A stretch of DNA of 40,035 bases. Source: a virus. A model generated the notes under the pieces. That model did not search any database. It worked only from the letters and a program-made list of their open reading frames with translations, and had not been told where the DNA came from. The stretch lies in the UHGV virus genome UHGV-0090445. One strand, given 5' to 3'. A program made the position numbers and the translations under genes. Below are positions 1,256 through 32,032 of the stretch, one piece after another. Numbering within the stretch: the first letter of the stretch is position 1; each line of letters opens with the position of its first letter.

Positions 1256-3238
1256 TTAAGCGCTTGCAATAAAATCCATTTCGAATAGCTGTATTCTATC
1301 GTCTGTTATGTAGGCCTCGAAATATGTTCCATCATATGATGATAACTTAACTCCATTTATATGACCAGCATATGTATCATTGTGCATAATAATTAACTGC
1401 CCGTCACCCTTTCCTACATATTTGCACGTCCATGTCCCATTTGTTTTTGTGCTGTTAAGTAATGTAGTCGTTGACTGCACTCCATCCTTACATATTATAC
1501 CTTTTGCTTCATTTCCTATATACCTTATTCCAAAGTAATTTCCTGATTCCACGGAGCCACAAACTATAAAACCATTTAGTGAATTAACTCCAGATGTAAT
1601 TCCATAAGCAACAGCAAAACCAAGATAGTTAAATGTTTCATATTTTAATACAAGCCGTCGCTCTCTTTTATATCTTACAAGTGCCGTACCGCCAACAGTC
1701 CCCGCTCTTACAACTAATCCACCTTCTGCATAATATTCCAACCCTGAACCTGAGCCGGTTACTTTATTGGTAAATTTATCATAGTCTTGAAATTGAGTAT
1801 GGTGCCTTGTTGTCGCAAGCGTAAATGAAGATGTTACTCCATTAATTGATTTTGTAGCTGTTTCAGTTATAAGCCCTACCTGTACTCCATCAACCCTACT
1901 TTGCGCAACTTTACCAATGCACATACCAAAATCATTACCGATAATGATACCGCCTATCGAAACAGCAACCCAACTTTTTAGTGTGCCAGACATTGGCTTT
2001 AGCGCCTGTCCTATTCTTGTTGAGTTTGAGCTTAATACTCCTCCATGCTTTACAACCATCCCTTTATCATTAATTTCGTTACCGAAATCGCATGATTCAA
2101 CTGATATTGTACTATTATATGCCTCAATACACTTATCAACTCCTACCCCATTGAATGAACAATCATTAACAGCGCCAGATGTGCATCCATAAAATTCAAC
2201 TGAAGCATTTTCATCACTGTGTGTTCTATTTGTAAAGTTTAAAGCGTGCAACTCTGGGCTGTATGGTGTGCCTCCGCATGAAAATACCTGGGCTGACCTA
2301 ACATTAACTGTTGTTCTGTCGGTAGTTCTACTTACTATAACAATGTTTGCTTGTTGCGATGCGCCAGGTGGGAATAGAGGTGTGCACCCCCTCTTGCTTC
2401 TGATTACTATGTCTTCATCATAAGTTCCTGGTGCAATTGAGATAATAATTCTCTGCCAATAATTATTTGGGATATCGTCAATTGCTTCCTGAATGGTCCG
2501 GTAATCTTCCGGAACCATGAGTGTTACAGGCATCGTGTAAATACCCGCCACTGTTGACGAGTCAACGCCAAATGGATGGATGTAACCGCGATACGGATCA
2601 TTACCCCCGATAGTATTGATAAATCCTTCAATGCGTACTTTTGCTGAGTTAGTGTACAGATAACCACATTCACCAATATCTACGCGGAACTTCGCCGGGA
2701 TAGTCAGATCTTCTGTAAATTCCACTGGAACGTTGACAAAAACTCGTCCGTTACCAGAGGCGATGGCGCGTTTGAAAGCCTGCGTGTAGTCTGGAGCTGC
2801 TGGGTCTCCTGGCTCAACAAATGCGCGTAGGTCATAAAATCTTTCCTGCTGACCACCAGGGATTAAAAAACCTTTATCTCCTTCAAGCTCCTGCCTTAAC
2901 TGATCAGGGTCATACTTCAATACGTTTGGATAGTAAAATTGCTGTACGCCATATGCATCATATACAGCCATAGAATGGCCTTGCACAGTTACGAATTTGG
3001 CAATCTGTCCGTTATATACAGGATAACCAGCAGCGTTAATGATTATTGGTTGCGAAACAGGAACATGAGAACCATCTTCGTTTTCTACATAAACCTGAAT
3101 CTGGTTTTCAGGATTTACCGGGTCAGTGTCAATTTTACCGATATAAATTTTGCCATTGGCTACCGCTTTAAAAGAACGAGCCATAGTGAAGAGTTGCGAA
3201 GGCATCGATACGATCACATTGGCTGTAATGTCTGTCAT
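1256..3238 (-). CDS. Tailspike protein, P22 gp9 family (conserved N-terminal head-binding domain, divergent receptor-binding body)
   Basis: 660 aa; N-terminus [11 protein letters not shown]...[35 protein letters not shown]...[12 protein letters not shown] closely matches the remembered P22 tailspike head-binding domain; remainder is not P22-like. Confidence 0.9.
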
Positions 3239-3370
3239 TTAATTTGCTCCAGATACAAGGAATCACCGCAGCATGGCTACGGTTGGTGTTTGTTGCATAC
3301 CGAAATGGTACGATTGTTGATTTGTACAGTAGGTTTTACGATGCCATTCCACCCATTTGGTGAGGCATTG

Positions 3371-3628
3371 ATGATGTACAGCAAATACGATGAGGCGCAG
3401 TTCCACTTGAGGCTTACGCACGAGTTGCACGCTAAGATTAAGCAACGTGCAAAAATGAATAACAGGTCTATCAATTCCGAAATTGTGGCTACGATGGAAG
3501 AATCACTCTCCAAACCATCACCTGTAAGCGGGTATCGTGATGAAGAAGAGAGGCTGGCCTCATTAATCTCGGAACGAGTAAAAGAAGTTGTGGCTGATAT
3601 CCTTAGAAAAGAAAAAACCCGCGATTAA
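3371..3628 (+). CDS. Mnt-like ribbon-helix-helix repressor (second copy)
   Basis: Internal start of ORF 2939..3628 at ATG 3371 with SD GGTGAGG upstream; product ...NNRSINSEIVATMEESLSKPSPVSGYRDEEERLA... resembles P22 Mnt (NGRSMNSE...SKPSPVTGYRNDAERLA). The upstream part of the track ORF is antisense to the tailspike and rejected. Confidence 0.75.
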   Translation: MMYSKYDEAQFHLRLTHELHAKIKQRAKMNNRSINSEIVATMEESLSKPSPVSGYRDEEERLASLISERVKEVVADILRKEKTRD

Positions 3629-3636
3629 GCGGGTTT
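3605..3636 (-). terminator. Intrinsic terminator for the ant2-orf73 transcript (between convergent genes)
   Basis: Hairpin AAACCCGC-GATTAA-GCGGGTTT at 3615..3636; on the minus strand it is followed by a T-rich run (complement of 3604..3614). Confidence 0.45.
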
Positions 3637-3642
3637 AGTTGG

Positions 3643-3864
3643 TTAGTTATCAAAAAGTCCGTACGTTTCTTCTTCTTTAGGTGTAAGGGGAAGAATCTCT
3701 ACTCTATCTATAGATACCTTTTCAATGTACCCATGAGGTCTACTTAAAATTAAAGCTCTCTCATGCCACAGAACTCCAAGAATGTGATACCTTCCAGCAT
3801 CGCCTTTTACCCTGGCTCTTCCTTTGATTCTTGGCGGCATAATGCCATATTTTTTCTTTGCCAT
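3643..3864 (-). CDS. Hypothetical protein (73 aa), translationally coupled to upstream antirepressor gene
   Basis: ORF from track; its start overlaps the stop of the 3864..4643 ORF (ATGA); basic N-terminus MAKKKYG; no family recognised. Confidence 0.4.
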   Translation of the reverse strand: MAKKKYGIMPPRIKGRARVKGDAGRYHILGVLWHERALILSRPHGYIEKVSIDRVEILPLTPKEEETYGLFDN

Positions 3865-4592
3865 TATGCAACATTACTCCCATGAATCAGGTGTTGTAGT
3901 GCTTTAACACCCTCCGCATTGTAGCGGAATGCTTCCACCTGTTTGCTTGAATGCGCAGATTTATCCAAGAAGAACTTCCCGTACTGCTCAGTTTTGAGGT
4001 TGTTTGCGTTAGCAATGCGACCAATCTTGTTGGCCGTTACTCCAAGCTGCTCTGCAACCTCCCCTGCTGAGTAGTAATGCTCTTCTATTGCCGGAAGAGG
4101 TATTGCATTAAAACCAACGAGCGGGTTGATTATACTTGCTGCCGCTGTCTGCTTTGCCTCCGGCGCAAGATTTGGCATCAGATCGAACAGATTGGTAACA
4201 GCTTCAACCGTCATTTTCAATGTTCGCGCTTGACGATACTCAACAAGTCCACTCGCTGATTTACCGCTTTTAATGTGCGCTTCTTGCATACTTTCAAGTT
4301 GGTCTACCAGTGAGCGGCGAACGGCTTTTGACTCGCGAGCGGCAACTCGCAATGCTTGCTTGATTGACATCTCAATGATAACCATCGAAGTTTTGTTCGC
4401 TTTTTGCACTACACTTTTTGTGTAGTGCTCTCCATCCAATTCATCTTCAATTTTCTCGATGAATTTGTTATTACGAACCTCCGGCTCACCGCACTGTCTA
4501 CGAGCCTGATTTACCATCTCAAGCAGGCGCTGGCTGTCAATGGTTTTATCCGTGACAACGGATCCGATGTTTGCTACATTCTTAAAAGTCAT
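3864..4592 (-). CDS. Antirepressor-like protein (KilAC/ANT-like C-terminal region)
   Basis: Track ORF 3864..4643; likely start is ATG at 4592 (MTFKNVANIG...) with SD AAGGAA 6 nt upstream; C-terminal motif EVAEQLGVTANKIGRIANANNL resembles the KilAC/ANT region of the nin-region Rha protein in this window. Confidence 0.6.
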   Translation of the reverse strand: MTFKNVANIGSVVTDKTIDSQRLLEMVNQARRQCGEPEVRNNKFIEKIEDELDGEHYTKSVVQKANKTSMVIIEMSIKQALRVAARESKAVRRSLVDQLESMQEAHIKSGKSASGLVEYRQARTLKMTVEAVTNLFDLMPNLAPEAKQTAAASIINPLVGFNAIPLPAIEEHYYSAGEVAEQLGVTANKIGRIANANNLKTEQYGKFFLDKSAHSSKQVEAFRYNAEGVKALQHLIHGSNVA

Positions 4593-4661
4593 TAGGCATT
4601 CCTTATGTGGTAGTAAGGGTGTGACATAGGCCGCCAGCAGCACACTGGCGGTTTTCTTTTT
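4587..4661 (+). ncRNA. Candidate sar-like antisense RNA covering the ant2 translation start
   Basis: Plus-strand promoter-like -35 GTGACA (4552..4557), 17-nt spacer, -10 TACATT (4575..4580); strong intrinsic terminator CCGCCAG-cagcaca-CTGGCGG + TTTTCTTTTT at 4631..4661. No plus-strand gene precedes it; transcript would be antisense to the ant2 SD and start codon. Confidence 0.35.
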
Positions 4662-4680
4662 GCGCCGTCCGGCGCACCAA

Positions 4681-5403
4681 TCAATGAATCCATTCCTCGC
4701 CGCGAAGTTTTGCCAGCATTGGCTGAGCGTTCTTTACGACAAAATTGTTGGTATCAAGATTCTTCATTTCACGAAGAAGTGATTTCTTGGTTTCTTCTGA
4801 CATGTAGCGAGTCTCATATGCAATATCGTAAATCCTTCCTGAAAGCTCAGAACCAATTTGCTTCATTCCTGGGTAGATGTGTTTGCACATTTGTTGACTC
4901 TTCTCCATCCACAATTGTAAGTAGCAGAGATTAACCAGTTCTTCGTCAGTAAACTGTTTTGCAATCGGTGAGCATTCTGCCTGCCGATCCAAAATATCCA
5001 GCACCCAGCGGCGGAACTCTTTGGCCTTGGGCGTAGAAGCAAACATCGCCACCAAGTGAGCGCCTCGGAGCGAGTAAACTCTGACCGATTTGTTACGTAA
5101 GCTATTGTTTATTCCGTTGACCTTCATATTGAGGGTCAATGACATTGAGTCGGAAAATTCGTCAGCATTACGGGCATAAATTTGGCTGATGGCATCAGTT
5201 TTTTTATAGCCGAGAGCCTTAGCTAGTTCGGCGGAGGTGAACCAGATAGACCCGCCCTCTGTTACAGGGTTAAAAGTGAATCCTTGGAAGTTATAATCTG
5301 ATTTTGCTACAATATTCATGTTAGTTTCCTTGGGTACGGTTACTGACATAGAGGCCCGGTTTGTGTTCGCGCACTTCCGGGCTTCACTATTTTTACTGGG
5401 CAT
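4681..5403 (-). CDS. ant: Antirepressor with Bro-N domain
   Basis: Bro-N-like region FTFNPVTEGGSIWFTSAELAKALGYKK...VRVYSLRGAHLVAMFASTPKAKEFRRWVLDIL; start overlaps the Arc stop (coupling); position matches P22 immI arc-ant. Confidence 0.8.
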   Translation of the reverse strand: MPSKNSEARKCANTNRASMSVTVPKETNMNIVAKSDYNFQGFTFNPVTEGGSIWFTSAELAKALGYKKTDAISQIYARNADEFSDSMSLTLNMKVNGINNSLRNKSVRVYSLRGAHLVAMFASTPKAKEFRRWVLDILDRQAECSPIAKQFTDEELVNLCYLQLWMEKSQQMCKHIYPGMKQIGSELSGRIYDIAYETRYMSEETKKSLLREMKNLDTNNFVVKNAQPMLAKLRGEEWIH

Positions 5404-5584
5404 TAGCTCTTTCCTCTCTCAGGCTTTTAGCCAGTCGCTGCACAATCGCAGAGTTGATAGAAATTCCATCCATTTCAGCTACGCGTCTGATCTCCTCCTT
5501 CATTCGCGCTGGCAAACGAAGCTGGAAACTCTGACTTTTACGACCACTGTAAAGAACATCGCTCATCATCAATATCTCCGTCAT
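5393..5584 (-). CDS. arc: Arc-like ribbon-helix-helix repressor
   Basis: 63 aa; FQLRLPARMKEEIRRVAEMDGISINSAIVQRL resembles P22 Arc (FNLRWPREVLDLVRKVAEENGRSVNSEIYQRV). Confidence 0.8.
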   Translation of the reverse strand: MTEILMMSDVLYSGRKSQSFQLRLPARMKEEIRRVAEMDGISINSAIVQRLAKSLREERANAQ

Positions 5585-5585
5585 A

Positions 5586-5640
5586 ATGACATCACCGTGA
5601 TGTCATGACACCATTATGATGCCATTGCTCATAATGTCAA
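5586..5640. promoter_or_regulatory. immI control region: perfect 10-1-10 palindromic operator plus divergent Pant-like and Pmnt-like promoters
   Basis: ATGACATCAC-C-GTGATGTCAT at 5586..5606 immediately upstream of arc; minus-strand promoter -35 TTGACA (complement of 5635..5640), 17-nt spacer, -10 ATAATG (complement of 5612..5617); plus-strand -10 CATAAT near 5630..5635. Confidence 0.5.
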
Positions 5641-5689
5641 TATGATGCTACTGTGTTTTTTATTGCTCATATGCCTTGCGAATAAGAAA

Positions 5690-5941
5690 ATGTCAGAAAA
5701 AGACGAATCAAATTTCATAGAAAGATTTACGGTTAGAATGCCTGACGGCATGCGTAGTGCTATTGCGGAAAGGGCTAAACGAAACGGTCGATCTATGAAC
5801 TCAGAGATAGTTCAAATTCTTGAGGATGCGTTATCATCTGACGTCTCATCAGTAGACAAATCATTAGATCTTAAACAAATAAAATCTTTACTTGATAAAA
5901 TTTCCAACGAGTTACTGGATAGAATCCCAAAAGACACATAA
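5690..5941 (+). CDS. mnt: Mnt/Arc-family ribbon-helix-helix repressor, divergent from arc-ant
   Basis: Internal start at ATG 5690 of ORF 5642..5941; FTVRMPDGMRSAIAERAKRNGRSMNSEIVQILEDAL is an RHH motif; placement and orientation match P22 mnt. Confidence 0.7.
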   Translation: MSEKDESNFIERFTVRMPDGMRSAIAERAKRNGRSMNSEIVQILEDALSSDVSSVDKSLDLKQIKSLLDKISNELLDRIPKDT

Positions 5942-5991
5942 CAAAACATTATCATCCGGTGTTCTGCTCAAAACTAAGGAGTGGCTACTCA

Positions 5992-6630
5992 ATGAAAAAA
6001 ATAGATATATATAGCGATACATCAGCCTATGTCATAGGCTCATTGGGTTTTTTAATTTTTTTTGTTTGGCAGTACCAGTCACTATCTCCAGGATGGCGAT
6101 TTTTTGGGATGTCTTTGATATCACTTGGTGCAGGAATAGCAACGCAGGTGTTGATGTATCTCTTTAATGGATGGCTCTCAAAAAGAGTTGAGAAAAAAAG
6201 AGCTACTTCAATATGTAGAAGCCTAGCTATTCCAGAAGACTCTACAGATCAGGATGATATTGCAAAATGTTGGCGGTATATGATTGCAAGATACTCAAAT
6301 GAGTTACTGGCAAACAGACTGTCCGACTTAATCGGGGTCGTAGTTACCTCTGTTGGAACAATCATCAGTATAGGGATATCAATTTGGTATGTCGGGATGA
6401 TTGTCTATTTTGTTTGGAATAGAGACTTCAATGAACCTTCCCTTCTTTTTATACCTTTATTTTTCAGGGTATTAGCATTCATATGTGAGTTATTGCTCTC
6501 TTTTTTCTGCAATGTTTTGTTCAACAGATACCCAGGTGAAGCAAGAAAGTTTAATAAAAACTATGATGAGTTAAGGAGAACAGATCCTTTTCTATCAAGT
6601 AAAGAGTTCCGCGATTCCATTCGCAATTAA
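5992..6630 (+). CDS. AT-rich predicted 4-TM inner-membrane protein at the SieA position (candidate superinfection exclusion protein)
   Basis: Start ATG 5992 with SD AAGGAG (5977..5982); four hydrophobic segments; AT-rich by eye; sits between mnt and the gp16 homolog as sieA does in P22. Homology to SieA not verifiable here. Confidence 0.65.
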   Translation: MKKIDIYSDTSAYVIGSLGFLIFFVWQYQSLSPGWRFFGMSLISLGAGIATQVLMYLFNGWLSKRVEKKRATSICRSLAIPEDSTDQDDIAKCWRYMIARYSNELLANRLSDLIGVVVTSVGTIISIGISIWYVGMIVYFVWNRDFNEPSLLFIPLFFRVLAFICELLLSFFCNVLFNRYPGEARKFNKNYDELRRTDPFLSSKEFRDSIRN

Positions 6631-6651
6631 CAACATCCATGACATCAACCC

Positions 6652-8517
6652 TTAGCGATCAGTTGCATCATTGGCAAGTATTGGTCTGATGGCATTTGCG
6701 GCGTTATTCAGCGCTCTTTCATAAGCTGGCGTTCCAGCTTTAGTGTTTGCCAGACGTAAGAGCGCATTCCTAGCCATAGGGCTTTCATAAACCCTCGACA
6801 TAAGGCCAATCCCTGTTTCCCCAGCCAATAGCGCGCCTCCGGTTTTTAGGTTACCAATAACCCTTACCAAAGGCGCGAGTGTCATGCCAGTCTTCGTCAC
6901 AACATTAGCCTCAGATGCTCTTTTGGTAGCATCGAGAATAGATAACATCCCCTCTATCTCTTTTCCGTTCTTCCCACCAAATACAGTTTTAAACACCTGA
7001 CCATTTGCTTGTTTTTGCAGCTTGCCAAGCTCGGTCATCATTTTCTGAGGGCTGTCACCTACCTTGTCAGCTATTTTGCTGATATATGCCGCCCTTAGCA
7101 TGTCTTTACCTTTTTGATCGAGTTTCCCGTACAATCGAGCTATATCTGACCCATATTGTCCATACACAATGGTATTTACAGCCTCGGGAGTTAAATCTCC
7201 TTTGTTTAGAACGTTTTTAAGGCGCGTTTGAGTTGCATGTGTTGCCATTTTTGCATAATCAGCTTTTCCCGCCCTCCATGCTGAAGCATCTTTTGGGCTA
7301 AGTCCTTTCGCTATAGATTTACTAAGGCTATTGGTTAGCGAGTTGTAGACCCTGTCGACCATTGTTTGCGACATTGATGGCAGAACTGTACGATCGCCTT
7401 TTACGTCAATGCGGAACTGAGTTCTCAGCTTATCAAGTAACTCAAAGGCATCATCTCCATTTGTTATCTCCTGAATGGCATTCTTATAATCATTAAGCGC
7501 AGAAATGGTCTGGGTGTCAGAAACACCTTTAAGTTTCCCAAGTTCGTTTACTGCTCCGTCGATAGCTCTTATGGCGCCACTTGTATCAACTGGCTTTCCA
7601 ACCATTCTTCCTGACAGGTTGTTTAGTTTTGACTTGGCTAACGATTTTTCCCTTGCAACGCCTGACTTTAGACTATCAACGACTACAGATGGATCGTAGT
7701 CGCCGTATTTTTCGGTGAAGCGATTAACAAGCTTGGTTCTAGCATCCTGCTGTGCGGCTCTCATTGGTCCAGTCCCAGCTATGACTCCTTCTGAGTAACC
7801 CTGCAGTTGATTGCCAAGTTTTGTTTTTGGAGGAACTACATCCGATGTCATAACTGGTACATCTGCCGCAGCGGCACGCTTGAGCAATTGCTGATCTGCT
7901 GGTGATATTTCGCCACGAACAGCAGTAATTCCACGCCCTATTCCCTTTGCTGCTGCGGAAAGAACCCCCTGAGCGGCAAGGTTAACTCCGGCATTTTTAG
8001 CTGCATTTTGTGCGAAATCGCCTTTCTGATTTGCGGCTTCTGCCAGTGATCCAATAGCCATGCTTCCTGCCGTTCCAACTCCTGGAACTAAATACCCGCC
8101 AATTGTTTCTCCAGCTTGAGCGTAGGGGTCTGTCGGTCGATCGACTGGACGATAGACATCATCCAATACTTTTGGCCCACCAAGCCCCTGGCTGATTGCA
8201 TTAATCAGACTTGCGCCACCCTGCAATACGTCAAATGGTATGTTTACCAGACCACGACCAGCCTGCTCTGCAATTTGCCCTGCACTTTGACCACCAGTGA
8301 GCCAATCGCCAGCTTGTTGCATCAATGATGGTTCTTCTTTCTGCTGCTGAGTCGGAGGGTATGCTGCATAAAACTGATCTCTTGCTTCAGCCCATTTGTC
8401 ACCAGCCTTAGGAGCAACAACCTCATCAAAATATTGCGCTTGAGCCTGTGCTTTCTGTTCTTCAGTTAACGCCTGATACTGTGGAGAGGCGATAACATCT
8501 TTCCATGCTTTAGCCAT
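6652..8517 (-). CDS. Ejection (DNA-transfer) protein, P22 gp16-like
   Basis: 621 aa (P22 gp16 about 609 aa); gene order gp7-gp20-gp16 ahead of immI/tailspike; Ala/Gly-rich. Confidence 0.8.
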   Translation of the reverse strand: MAKAWKDVIASPQYQALTEEQKAQAQAQYFDEVVAPKAGDKWAEARDQFYAAYPPTQQQKEEPSLMQQAGDWLTGGQSAGQIAEQAGRGLVNIPFDVLQGGASLINAISQGLGGPKVLDDVYRPVDRPTDPYAQAGETIGGYLVPGVGTAGSMAIGSLAEAANQKGDFAQNAAKNAGVNLAAQGVLSAAAKGIGRGITAVRGEISPADQQLLKRAAAADVPVMTSDVVPPKTKLGNQLQGYSEGVIAGTGPMRAAQQDARTKLVNRFTEKYGDYDPSVVVDSLKSGVAREKSLAKSKLNNLSGRMVGKPVDTSGAIRAIDGAVNELGKLKGVSDTQTISALNDYKNAIQEITNGDDAFELLDKLRTQFRIDVKGDRTVLPSMSQTMVDRVYNSLTNSLSKSIAKGLSPKDASAWRAGKADYAKMATHATQTRLKNVLNKGDLTPEAVNTIVYGQYGSDIARLYGKLDQKGKDMLRAAYISKIADKVGDSPQKMMTELGKLQKQANGQVFKTVFGGKNGKEIEGMLSILDATKRASEANVVTKTGMTLAPLVRVIGNLKTGGALLAGETGIGLMSRVYESPMARNALLRLANTKAGTPAYERALNNAANAIRPILANDATDR

Positions 8518-31378: not shown

Positions 31379-32032
31379 ATGAAATGGTATGAACTGGCTA
31401 GATCCAGAATGAAAGAGCTCGGCATAACTCAAGAGAAGTTAGCTGAAGAGCTTGGTATGACGCAGGGTGGAATTGGTCACTGGTTGCGCGGATCTCGTCA
31501 TCCATCTCTTGACGAGATTGGTGTGGTGTTTAAATACCTTGGTATTGATAATGTCTCATTCAACCACGACGGTACATTTTCACCTGTTGGCGAATACTCA
31601 TCTGCCCCCGTTAAAAAACAATATGAGTACCCTGTTTTTTCTCATGTTCAGGCCGGGATGTTCTCGCCTGAGCTTAGAACCTTTACCAAAGGTGATGCGG
31701 AGAGATGGGTCAGCACAACCAAAAAAGCCAGTGATTGTGCGTTTTGGCTTGAAGTTGAAGGTAATTCCATGACCGCGCCAACAGGATCCAAGCCAAGCTT
31801 TCCTGACGGGATGTTAATTCTCGTTGACCCTGAGCAGGCTGTTGAGCCAGGTGATTTCTGCATAGCCAGACTTGGTGGTGACGAGTTTACCTTCAAGAAA
31901 CTGATCAGGGATAGCGGTCAGGTGTTCCTACAGCCACTAAACCCGCAATATCCAATGATTCCATGCAATGATAGCTGTTCCGTAGTAGGGAAAGTTATCG
32001 CCAGCCAGTGGCCTGAAGAGACATTTAGTTAA
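31379..32032 (+). CDS. cI: CI/C2-type prophage repressor (HTH plus LexA-like S24 autocleavage domain)
   Basis: ORF 31331..32032, probable start ATG 31379 ([35 protein letters not shown]...); C-terminal S24-like region with GNSMTAPTG and catalytic-type Lys. Confidence 0.85.

Follow-up and report, generated by a model that had tools for sequence, protein, structure and literature searches.

Gene content and layout of the region

The virus genome UHGV-0090445 (40,035 nucleotides, the whole of which is hereafter called the window) is a P22-like (Lederbergvirus) prophage of Escherichia coli that runs in the opposite orientation to the P22 map, and our subject is its immI-like stretch at 3371..5941, in which two candidate antirepressor genes lie between two Mnt-type repressor genes. 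By DNA the nearest phages are Lederbergvirus members, for example CUS-3 and JEP4; among annotated relatives the closest are E. coli prophages, whose DNA is up to 99% identical over 3200..6700. The stretch occupies the slot between gene 16, with sieA, and the tailspike gene (gene 9), which is the location of immI, or the "ant moron", in P22-type phages. The order in the window is tailspike, MntA, orf73, Ant2, Ant1, Arc, MntB, SieA-like gene and gene 16 homolog, which is that of P22 (16, sieA, mnt / arc, ant, 9) plus further genes. All six open reading frames (ORFs) of the region are intact, and profile searches (Pfam and PHROG) matched each of them on the strand and to the family proposed in a first-pass annotation made from the sequence alone.

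Four of the genes form an operon on the minus strand. It begins with an Arc homolog of 57 amino acids (aa) (5393..5566; Pfam Arc, 1.1e-11; 42% identity to P22 Arc), followed by the antirepressor candidates Ant1 (4681..5319; 212 aa from its corrected start) and Ant2 (3864..4592; 242 aa) and by a 73-aa protein, orf73 (3643..3864), whose ATG overlaps the ant2 stop codon as TAATG, an arrangement that points to translational coupling. Across a control region at 5567..5689, and on the plus strand, stands MntB (5690..5941; 83 aa; Pfam Arc, 1.4e-17), a ribbon-helix-helix (RHH) repressor in the position of P22 Mnt, so the P22 layout of an mnt-like gene divergent from arc-ant, as first proposed, is borne out. 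At the far end MntA (3371..3628, plus strand; 85 aa, with the start at 3374 in the Prokaryotic Genome Annotation Pipeline, PGAP; Pfam Arc, 9.9e-15) is convergent with the operon and divergent from the tailspike gene. The second antirepressor-type gene, the coupled 73-aa ORF and the second, convergent Mnt-like gene that the first-pass annotation had listed were thus all recovered; three of its starts were not, even though the genes themselves stand. That of ant1 is treated below. The arc gene most likely starts at 5566 or 5569 (57-58 aa) rather than at 5584, with GGAG 6-9 nucleotides (nt) upstream of its ATG, and mntB most likely starts at 5690 (83 aa) rather than at 5642, because homologs of 81-83 aa (54-79% identity) are found in other genera (Salmonella, Citrobacter, Hafnia and Cronobacter).

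Purifying selection acts on the ORFs, with a ratio of nonsynonymous to synonymous differences (pN/pS) of 0.05-0.28 where divergence suffices for measuring. This includes the two genes that, if non-coding or pseudogenes, would have counted against the first-pass annotation, with values of 0.21 for Ant2 (at pS 0.28, against strain OkiPb01711) and 0.05 for MntA (at pS 0.60, against phage VSe13). Protein comparison found no detectable similarity between Ant1 and Ant2, and MntA and MntB have about 44% identity over 38 aa in the RHH domain and nothing else in common; we therefore rejected a duplication of ant or of mnt, and of the earlier description of the switch as "duplicated or composite" the second word stands and the first does not.

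We think it rather likely that this P22-like E. coli prophage has its secondary-immunity (immI / ant moron) segment here and that the segment was put together from two separate modules: a switch for antirepression in the style of P22, with two outputs (module 1, about 3643..5941), and a lone mnt / tailspike unit (module 2, 3239..3628). That the whole region is instead a decaying, non-functional immI relic strikes us as very improbable. Ant morons of P22-like phages are indeed in rapid flux, often with degraded genes among their contents (PMC2629481), several genomes have a pseudogene label from PGAP on MntB, and insertion sequence (IS) elements interrupt the region in some strains; however, a relic would hardly be expected to keep six intact and constrained ORFs, an MntB frame with same-length homologs across genera, and a block that is found both in the isolated, viable phage JEP4 and in 25 complete genomes.

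Candidate antirepressor genes and their putative antisense cassettes

Ant1 is assigned to PHROG 245 ("anti-repressor Ant", 1e-63) and combines an N-terminal BRO-N domain (Pfam, 1.4e-10) with a C-terminal P22AR_C domain (2.6e-13), through which alone it resembles P22 Ant (31% identity over 62 aa); its gene is 95% identical in DNA to that for Ant of Salmonella phage SPN3UB. PGAP places the ant1 start at 5319, and the first codons and the upstream spacer are homologous to those of P22 ant. We rejected the longer ORF, with a start at 5403, that the first-pass annotation had given as 4681..5403, since its extension overlies the spacer homologous to P22 sar (5320..5392, 73 bases). In P22 and in four further loci (L016, L020, L025 and L041) the extension either is not open in this frame or has no start codon, and the apparently conserved peptide that it would encode undergoes non-synonymous changes in step with the RNA stem.

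Ant2 is of a different kind. It belongs to PHROG 1726 ("anti-repressor", 5e-101), gave no hit in a Pfam search and no match in a sequence search of the PDB, and shows no similarity to P22 Ant. Over residues 14-106 it has 66% identity to the Ant1/Ant2 proteins of phage P1 (E = 6e-31), whereas its C-terminal half is different. Homologs number 2,078, and the full-length ones in Stx2a phages (59-63% identity) carry an antirepressor annotation. The AlphaFold model (pLDDT 68) consists of an N-terminal winged-helix-like domain and a C-terminal winged helix-turn-helix (HTH), and it matches KilAC, antirepressor and KilA proteins in BFVD at 1e-9 to 1e-5. Both proteins presumably bind and inactivate CI-type repressors, either that of their own prophage, which at 31379..32032 is a protein with HTH and S24 domains, or those of co-resident prophages, or both.

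The last gene of the operon, orf73, belongs to PHROG 4977 (function unknown; 2.9e-53) and has no match in Pfam or NCBIfam. It forms only 8 clusters at 90% identity, all of them from E. coli or Salmonella where the source names an organism, and a search of 1.8 billion representatives returned 10 matches (E <= 0.001), of which one was a close relative; the relatives share a conserved N-terminal motif. Its AlphaFold model is a generic five-strand SH3/Tudor-like barrel (pLDDT 78) with no significant match in the PDB.

Each antirepressor gene appears to be paired with an antisense cassette. In P22, sar is an antisense RNA of 68-70 nt that blocks translation of ant (PMC13397905), and the arc-ant1 spacer of the window (5320..5392) shares homology with the P22 spacer between arc and ant, in which sar is encoded. 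From a promoter scan, and from homology in both position and sequence to Psar and sar as annotated in P22, we delimited a sar1 unit at 5284..5393 on the plus strand. Its predicted promoter (TTGGAA-18-TACAAT, 5284..5313) lies inside the first ant1 codons, and the RNA would run from 5320, right after the anti-AUG, to about 5393, forming two hairpins and ending in a terminator that overlaps the arc stop codon. The unit thus has the entire sar layout: a segment opposite the ribosome-binding site, a promoter in the first ant codons, two hairpins and a terminator at the end of arc. Across 16 loci including P22, compensatory changes occur in 4 of the 7 pairs of the terminator. The RNA aligns end to end with the Rfam family RF00262 (sar; model positions 1-68) at 5320..5388.

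A second such unit, sar2, was predicted by promoter and terminator scans at 4552..4662 on the plus strand, and matches no Rfam family. Here too the putative promoter (GTGACA-17-TACATT, 4552..4580, with a predicted start near 4587) sits inside the first codons of the antirepressor gene, and a segment complementary to the AUG and Shine-Dalgarno sequence precedes a terminator hairpin (4628..4654) and a T-run. In 12 loci from about ten genera the antisense strand preserves every one of these elements: the -35, the -10, the hairpin and the T-run. Of the seven pairs in the core stem three are compensated and none is broken, and in 8 of 12 minimum-free-energy folds the anti-Shine-Dalgarno UCCU falls in the loop of the 5' hairpin. 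The two cassettes of the window are themselves weakly similar (z = 4.7).

Two observations weigh against these assignments. The alignment of sar1 to RF00262 scores 17.3 bits (E = 0.23 in a 116-nt search), below the gathering score of 43 and far from the 97.8 bits of P22 itself, and an Rfam scan of a 3.8-kb stretch did not report sar1 at E <= 5. The conserved hexamers of the sar2 promoter overlap conserved codons (SVVTE and NVAN), so their conservation is possibly in part protein-driven. To judge by its sequence, sar1 is a diverged homolog of P22 sar, not a formal member of RF00262.

The codon overlap also bears on an alternative for sar2, under which its hairpin would stabilise or process the 3' end of the ant1 mRNA and the hexamers would be kept for the sake of Ant2 residues, with no antisense RNA being made. 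In its favour are the position of both the -35 (GTGACA) and the -10 within conserved codons, the variability of the -10 among loci (TACATT, TAAAGT, TAAATT and TACAGT) and the missing Rfam match. The orientation of the hairpin argues otherwise: the T-run follows it on the antisense strand only, in 12 of 12 loci, while the sense strand has an A-run before it and no U-run after it, as fits an antisense terminator. Moreover, the design copies that of P22 sar, which is established by experiment: the promoter lies within the first codons, the start just past the anti-AUG and the anti-Shine-Dalgarno in a loop, and a terminator follows. The two cassettes also show residual similarity. We regard this alternative as unlikely, though it is one to be taken seriously, and sar2 as a credible candidate for a second, newly recognised sar-like antisense RNA; our literature search found no description of a second sar-like RNA or any analysis of a two-antirepressor layout.

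On their way to the tailspike gene, transcripts of the late operon have to pass through this region, as is established for P22. We suggest that ant1 and ant2 each have their own constitutive cis-antisense RNA, sar1 and sar2 respectively, made from a promoter embedded in the first codons of the gene and covering its AUG and Shine-Dalgarno sequence; because they would cover these sites, late-operon read-through would yield no antirepressor. By analogy with P22 it is plausible that there is one cassette per antirepressor gene because read-through transcripts require a translational block at each ant cistron.

Proposed control of the operon, and the distal Mnt

The control region between mntB and arc resembles that of P22 immI in the layout of its predicted parts. 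A promoter scan identified a Pant-like promoter on the minus strand that matches the consensus at 11 of 12 positions (TTGACA at 5640..5635, a 16-nt spacer and CATAAT at 5618..5613), and a Pmnt-like promoter lies on the plus strand at 5619..5646. Repeat searches found two palindromes: one of 21 bp (TTATGATGCCATTGCTCATAA, 5614..5634) over the spacer and -10, at the position of P22 Oarc, and a perfect one of 21 bp (ATGACATCACCGTGATGTCAT, 5586..5606), unique in the window, at +1, at the position of P22 Omnt. This geometry agrees with the annotated Pant, Oarc and Omnt of P22. A Yersinia locus (L029) with the closest relatives of MntB (87%) and Arc (80%) has the same promoter and keeps the (A/G)CATCA half-sites. 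From position and analogy we infer which protein goes with which site: MntB would be the maintenance repressor, holding Pant shut in the lysogen through the palindrome at +1, and Arc the feedback repressor. Once released, the strong Pant-like promoter would drive arc, ant1, ant2 and orf73, and Arc, made from its own operon, would shut Pant after the burst, probably at the spacer/-10 palindrome.

MntB itself resembles P22 Mnt only in part. The identity (55%) is confined to the RHH domain (P22 Mnt residues 7-44, 38 aa), and the C-terminal half is different. PGAP labels MntB an incomplete pseudogene in three near-identical prophages (T2, pB1.H1.18.c6 and OkiPb01711) in which the 83-codon ORF is intact. 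With an intact frame and homologs of the same length, pseudogene status was rejected, and the label is probably an annotation artefact arising from the non-P22 C-terminus.

The full-length homolog of P22 Mnt is, on sequence grounds, the distal protein, a point that the first-pass annotation had missed. MntA residues 7-79 align with P22 Mnt residues 4-76 at 48% identity over 73 aa, the C-terminal tetramerisation part included, so that the two-part homology of the Mnt family (N-terminal RHH plus C-terminal tetramerisation domain) is present in MntA; in MntB only residues 12-49 align. MntA is 64-67% identical to the proteins of Sf101 and IME10, which share its upstream palindrome. Between the convergent mntA and orf73, which are 14 bp apart, a terminator scan found a shared hairpin (3615..3636), predicted to terminate the ant operon strongly on the minus strand, where TTTTCTTTTCT comes after it, and mntA more weakly. 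The MntA ortholog of a Citrobacter locus (L017, 4797..5051), at 89% identity, is interrupted in frame by a stop at its fifth codon and may be a pseudogene or have a later start.

The mntA-tailspike spacer aligns with the Pmnt/Omnt region of P22, and arc-ant is absent from it. Directly upstream of a weak predicted promoter, PmntA (TTGTTG at 3314..3319, a 17-nt spacer and TACGAT at 3337..3342), lies a candidate MntA operator (ATACCGAAATGGTAC, 3297..3311), which falls at the position of P22 Omnt when the regions upstream of mnt are aligned. The palindrome at this position differs with the Mnt allele, being AGGTCCACGGTGGACCT in P22, AGACCACTGTGGTCT in Gally and ATACC-5-GGTAC in the MntA group. In the window this is the sole perfect copy, and it is also found upstream of mntA in JEP4, T2, MDR_56, E100341, A10, VSe13, Sf101 and IME10. 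When we looked for it at Pant and in the rest of the module in the window and in seven variants, it occurred only upstream of mntA. A copy with one mismatch (AGACCTCATGGGTAC, 3727..3741, minus strand) lies within orf73 and is kept wherever orf73 is present, and at up to one mismatch the pattern occurs 5 times in the window against 0.8 expected.

The mntA / tailspike unit also occurs by itself. Sf101, IME10 and Gally have it without arc or ant, and VSe13 adds only a truncated antirepressor fragment; a lone mnt beside the tailspike gene has been described for L, ST64T and ST104 (PMC2629481, PMC8022706). Because the palindrome is found only upstream of mntA, because the unit stands alone in these other phages, and because the ant1-ant2-orf73-mntA block is constant while the left end of the region varies, MntA most likely forms a separate module that would regulate only its own spacer, with its own operator and weak promoter, and not Pant of module 1.

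Three observations speak against this wiring. The ribosome-binding site of MntB is weak (AAGAAA). In MDR_56 (L012, 3990..4115) Arc is the same as that of the window but for 2 substitutions, yet the promoter/operator region is unrelated and has ACCAA/TTGGT palindromes, so that either this is a mis-wired recombinant or our site assignment for Arc is wrong. Lastly, a lambda-like Buttiauxella prophage without a P22 tailspike (L019) has an mntA-like gene convergent after ant2 and followed by the same terminator hairpin, which may mean that MntA belongs functionally to the ant module and is no independent leftover.

The Buttiauxella case leads to the possibility that MntA, acting in trans at Pant, is the maintenance repressor of the ant operon, with MntB serving mainly the mntB-sieA unit. 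MntA would suit that role as the only full-length Mnt homolog, and its linkage to the ant1-ant2 block is kept while the divergent repressor swaps among four other types. We nevertheless judge this improbable, since ATACC-5-GGTAC is missing from the Pant regions of the window, JEP4, E100341, A10, MDR_56 and the Buttiauxella locus, the Pant regions of the variants are mutually unrelated although MntA is about 97% conserved, and the Pant half-sites track relatives of MntB and Arc, as in the Yersinia locus. Equally doubtful in our view is a role of MntA in controlling the tailspike gene, through either a relic Pant-type promoter reading from the spacer into gene 9 or a roadblock to late read-through. 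The homology of the spacer to the Pant/Pmnt region of P22 and the position of mntA, which in all P22-like phages that possess it diverges from the tailspike gene, even where no ant is left, are consistent with it; on the other hand, a promoter scan of 3239..3370 found no acceptable sigma-70 promoter facing the tailspike gene, and the equivalent of the Pant -10/-35, read by eye, is degenerate (ATGGCA, a spacer of about 13-15 nt, TACAAA). We retain MntB at Pant, with MntA confined to its own spacer, as the preferred assignment.

The flanking genes complete the P22 picture. The tailspike gene (1256..3238, minus strand), in the position of P22 gene 9, forms the right-hand boundary of the moron; residues 1-113 of its product match Pfam Head_binding (2e-66), and about 45 bp of leader or boundary sequence upstream of the gene are conserved and common to P22 and CUS-3. 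The receptor-binding part of the tailspike does not match the P22 endorhamnosidase and gave a weak, sub-threshold pectinesterase-like match. On the other side, a SieA-like superinfection-exclusion gene (5992..6630, plus strand; PHROG 7745, 2e-20; 28% identity to P22 SieA over 148 aa) lies downstream of mntB, as in P22, and is followed by the gene 16 homolog (6652..8517, minus strand). The SieA-like gene begins 50 bp past mntB with a good Shine-Dalgarno sequence and without a terminator-like site in between; mntB and sieA may thus form a lysogen-expressed operon, unlike P22 sieA, which has its own promoter.

Distribution, sister variants and known systems

The region is not peculiar to this prophage, and the first impression that such a switch is unusual was not supported. 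Of 5,426 complete E. coli genomes, 25 carry at least 80% of 3371..5941 with a DNA identity of 80% or above, and more genomes have parts of it; JEP4 (MT740315) shares 3226..5399 at 96% identity, and the lone mnt is a known state. To survey the tandem of antirepressor genes, we used contigs from one genome per species, among which 11 loci encode a full-length Ant2. In all 11 an antirepressor gene lies directly upstream of ant2, of the BRO-N type in ten and of the P22-Ant type in Pantoea, and further upstream there are an Arc-like gene and a divergent repressor. These loci come from about ten genera of Enterobacterales, including Serratia, Pantoea, Citrobacter, Kluyvera, Buttiauxella, Proteus, Dryocola and Intestinirhabdus; orf73 is not part of the loci of other genera. 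As the tandem was found in every full-length Ant2 locus, the Ant1-Ant2 pair is a conserved heterologous unit and not a local oddity.

Within E. coli, the variants keep the ant1-ant2-orf73-mntA block constant and vary at the left end, with Arc changing to match. The place of MntB is taken by an RHH protein of 127 aa, an HTH protein of 213 aa, a LexA-family protein of 287 aa or a C2-like repressor (MDR_56, E100341, A10 and JEP4; L012, L013, L014 and L001), and in A10 Ant1 is also replaced, by a P22-type Ant. The LexA-family regulator hints at SOS-controlled antirepression in some variants.

Other occurrences show the region in different states. In two hospital-wastewater E. coli assemblies (NZ_CP146561.1 and NZ_CP146567.1) a circular "plasmid" form is present; the first of these (pB1.H1.18.c6, L005) is P22-like, 39,940 bp long and 98.6% identical over 94% of 3200..6700. 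This is probably phage DNA that has been excised or is replicating; its cI is frameshifted. In E. coli O111:H- 110512 (H27) and E. coli HS (H174, with an IS3 at the left end of the prophage) IS1203/IS3 elements interrupt the region, and the annotation of 110512 has separate BRO-N and P22AR_C proteins on either side of the element, which suggests that the IS splits ant1.

The closest known system is P22 immI itself. The likenesses are the slot and order, an RHH repressor divergent from an operon that starts with an Arc homolog, a predicted strong promoter with palindromes in the spacer/-10 and at +1, a putative sar-type unit over the ant ribosome-binding site and a terminator before the tailspike gene. 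In contrast to P22, the window has two antirepressor genes in place of one, of which Ant1 has only the C-terminal domain of P22 Ant, with a BRO-N N-terminus, and Ant2 is unrelated to it; it has gained another candidate sar-like unit and the coupled ORF of 73 aa; and MntB is without the C-terminal half of P22 Mnt, a second, full-length Mnt standing at the far end. Villafane et al. (2008; PMC2629481) named the slot the "ant moron", distinguished ten types among sixteen genomes, and included a drawing of HS-1, the prophage of E. coli HS, in which they recorded putative antirepressor genes. The HS chromosome and JEP4 have the mntA-orf73-ant2-ant1 block in the same variable slot at 92% and 96% DNA identity, respectively, and JEP4 differs in its Arc allele and in having the C2-like repressor in place of MntB. 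The phages with a lone mnt (L, ST64T, ST104, Sf101, IME10 and Gally) likewise have a gene for a full-length Mnt homolog that diverges from the tailspike gene, and no cognate arc-ant separates the two; here, by contrast, the lone mnt stands back to back with a complete and different antirepression operon, which results in two Mnt-type proteins.

Outside the P22 group, immI of phage P1 (c4 antisense RNA, icd and ant1/ant2) resembles the window in the N-terminal domain of Ant2 and in the use, proposed here, of an antisense RNA that blocks antirepressor translation. P1 makes two Ant polypeptides that act together and are in-frame products of one gene. The window differs from it in its two unrelated antirepressor genes and in a candidate antisense RNA that is cis-encoded and sar-like; upstream of ant2 we found no c4- or icd-like feature, and the window contains no homolog of either. 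In Stx2a_F451 an Ant2 homolog of 63% identity adjoins further antirepressor genes. The trans-acting antirepressors of the Gifsy prophages inactivate repressors, including those of other prophages (Lemire et al. 2011, PMC3121763), and their genes are repressed by LexA (PMC7067206). Unlike these, the window appears to use RHH repressors and antisense RNAs, and it is only in sister variants, for example those of E. coli A10 and Buttiauxella L019, that a LexA-family or CI-like repressor stands where MntB does here.

The mechanism that we propose is P22-like by strong analogy, with the second antisense cassette as a credible new detail. The sequence analysis establishes which genes are present, how they are arranged and related, and their conservation, covariation and purifying selection; from this we infer which protein binds where, the activity of the promoters, the presence of both RNAs in vivo and the action of Ant1 and Ant2 as antirepressors. 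A bolder reading is possible, though we hold it only tentatively and think it somewhat unlikely as a whole: arc-sar-ant1-sar2-ant2 would be a two-output module in which each antirepressor is gated by its own sar-type RNA and aimed at a different class of prophage repressor (own CI versus co-resident); the sar cassette would be a mobile 5' control element, joined in the past to three or more unrelated families of antirepressors (BRO-N, P22 and P1 types); and MntA would provide a second, independent layer of control, for example over tailspike read-through. If such a two-output module exists, a single derepression event would cross-induce several prophages.

For annotation, the start of ant1 should be set at 5319, MntB should not be called a pseudogene, and the "hypothetical protein" Ant2 can be described as P1-Ant-like. 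These results do not overturn existing ideas and instead extend a well-studied paradigm. If our interpretation is true, the classical P22 immI circuit would be one member of a wider modular family, whose control end (type of repressor) is exchanged independently of its output end (one or two antirepressors of different folds) and in which a sar-type cassette is reused for each antirepressor gene. Sar2 would then represent a candidate small-RNA family beyond the coverage of Rfam, and the circuit would make testable predictions on induction and cross-induction of prophages independent of RecA cleavage in polylysogenic E. coli.

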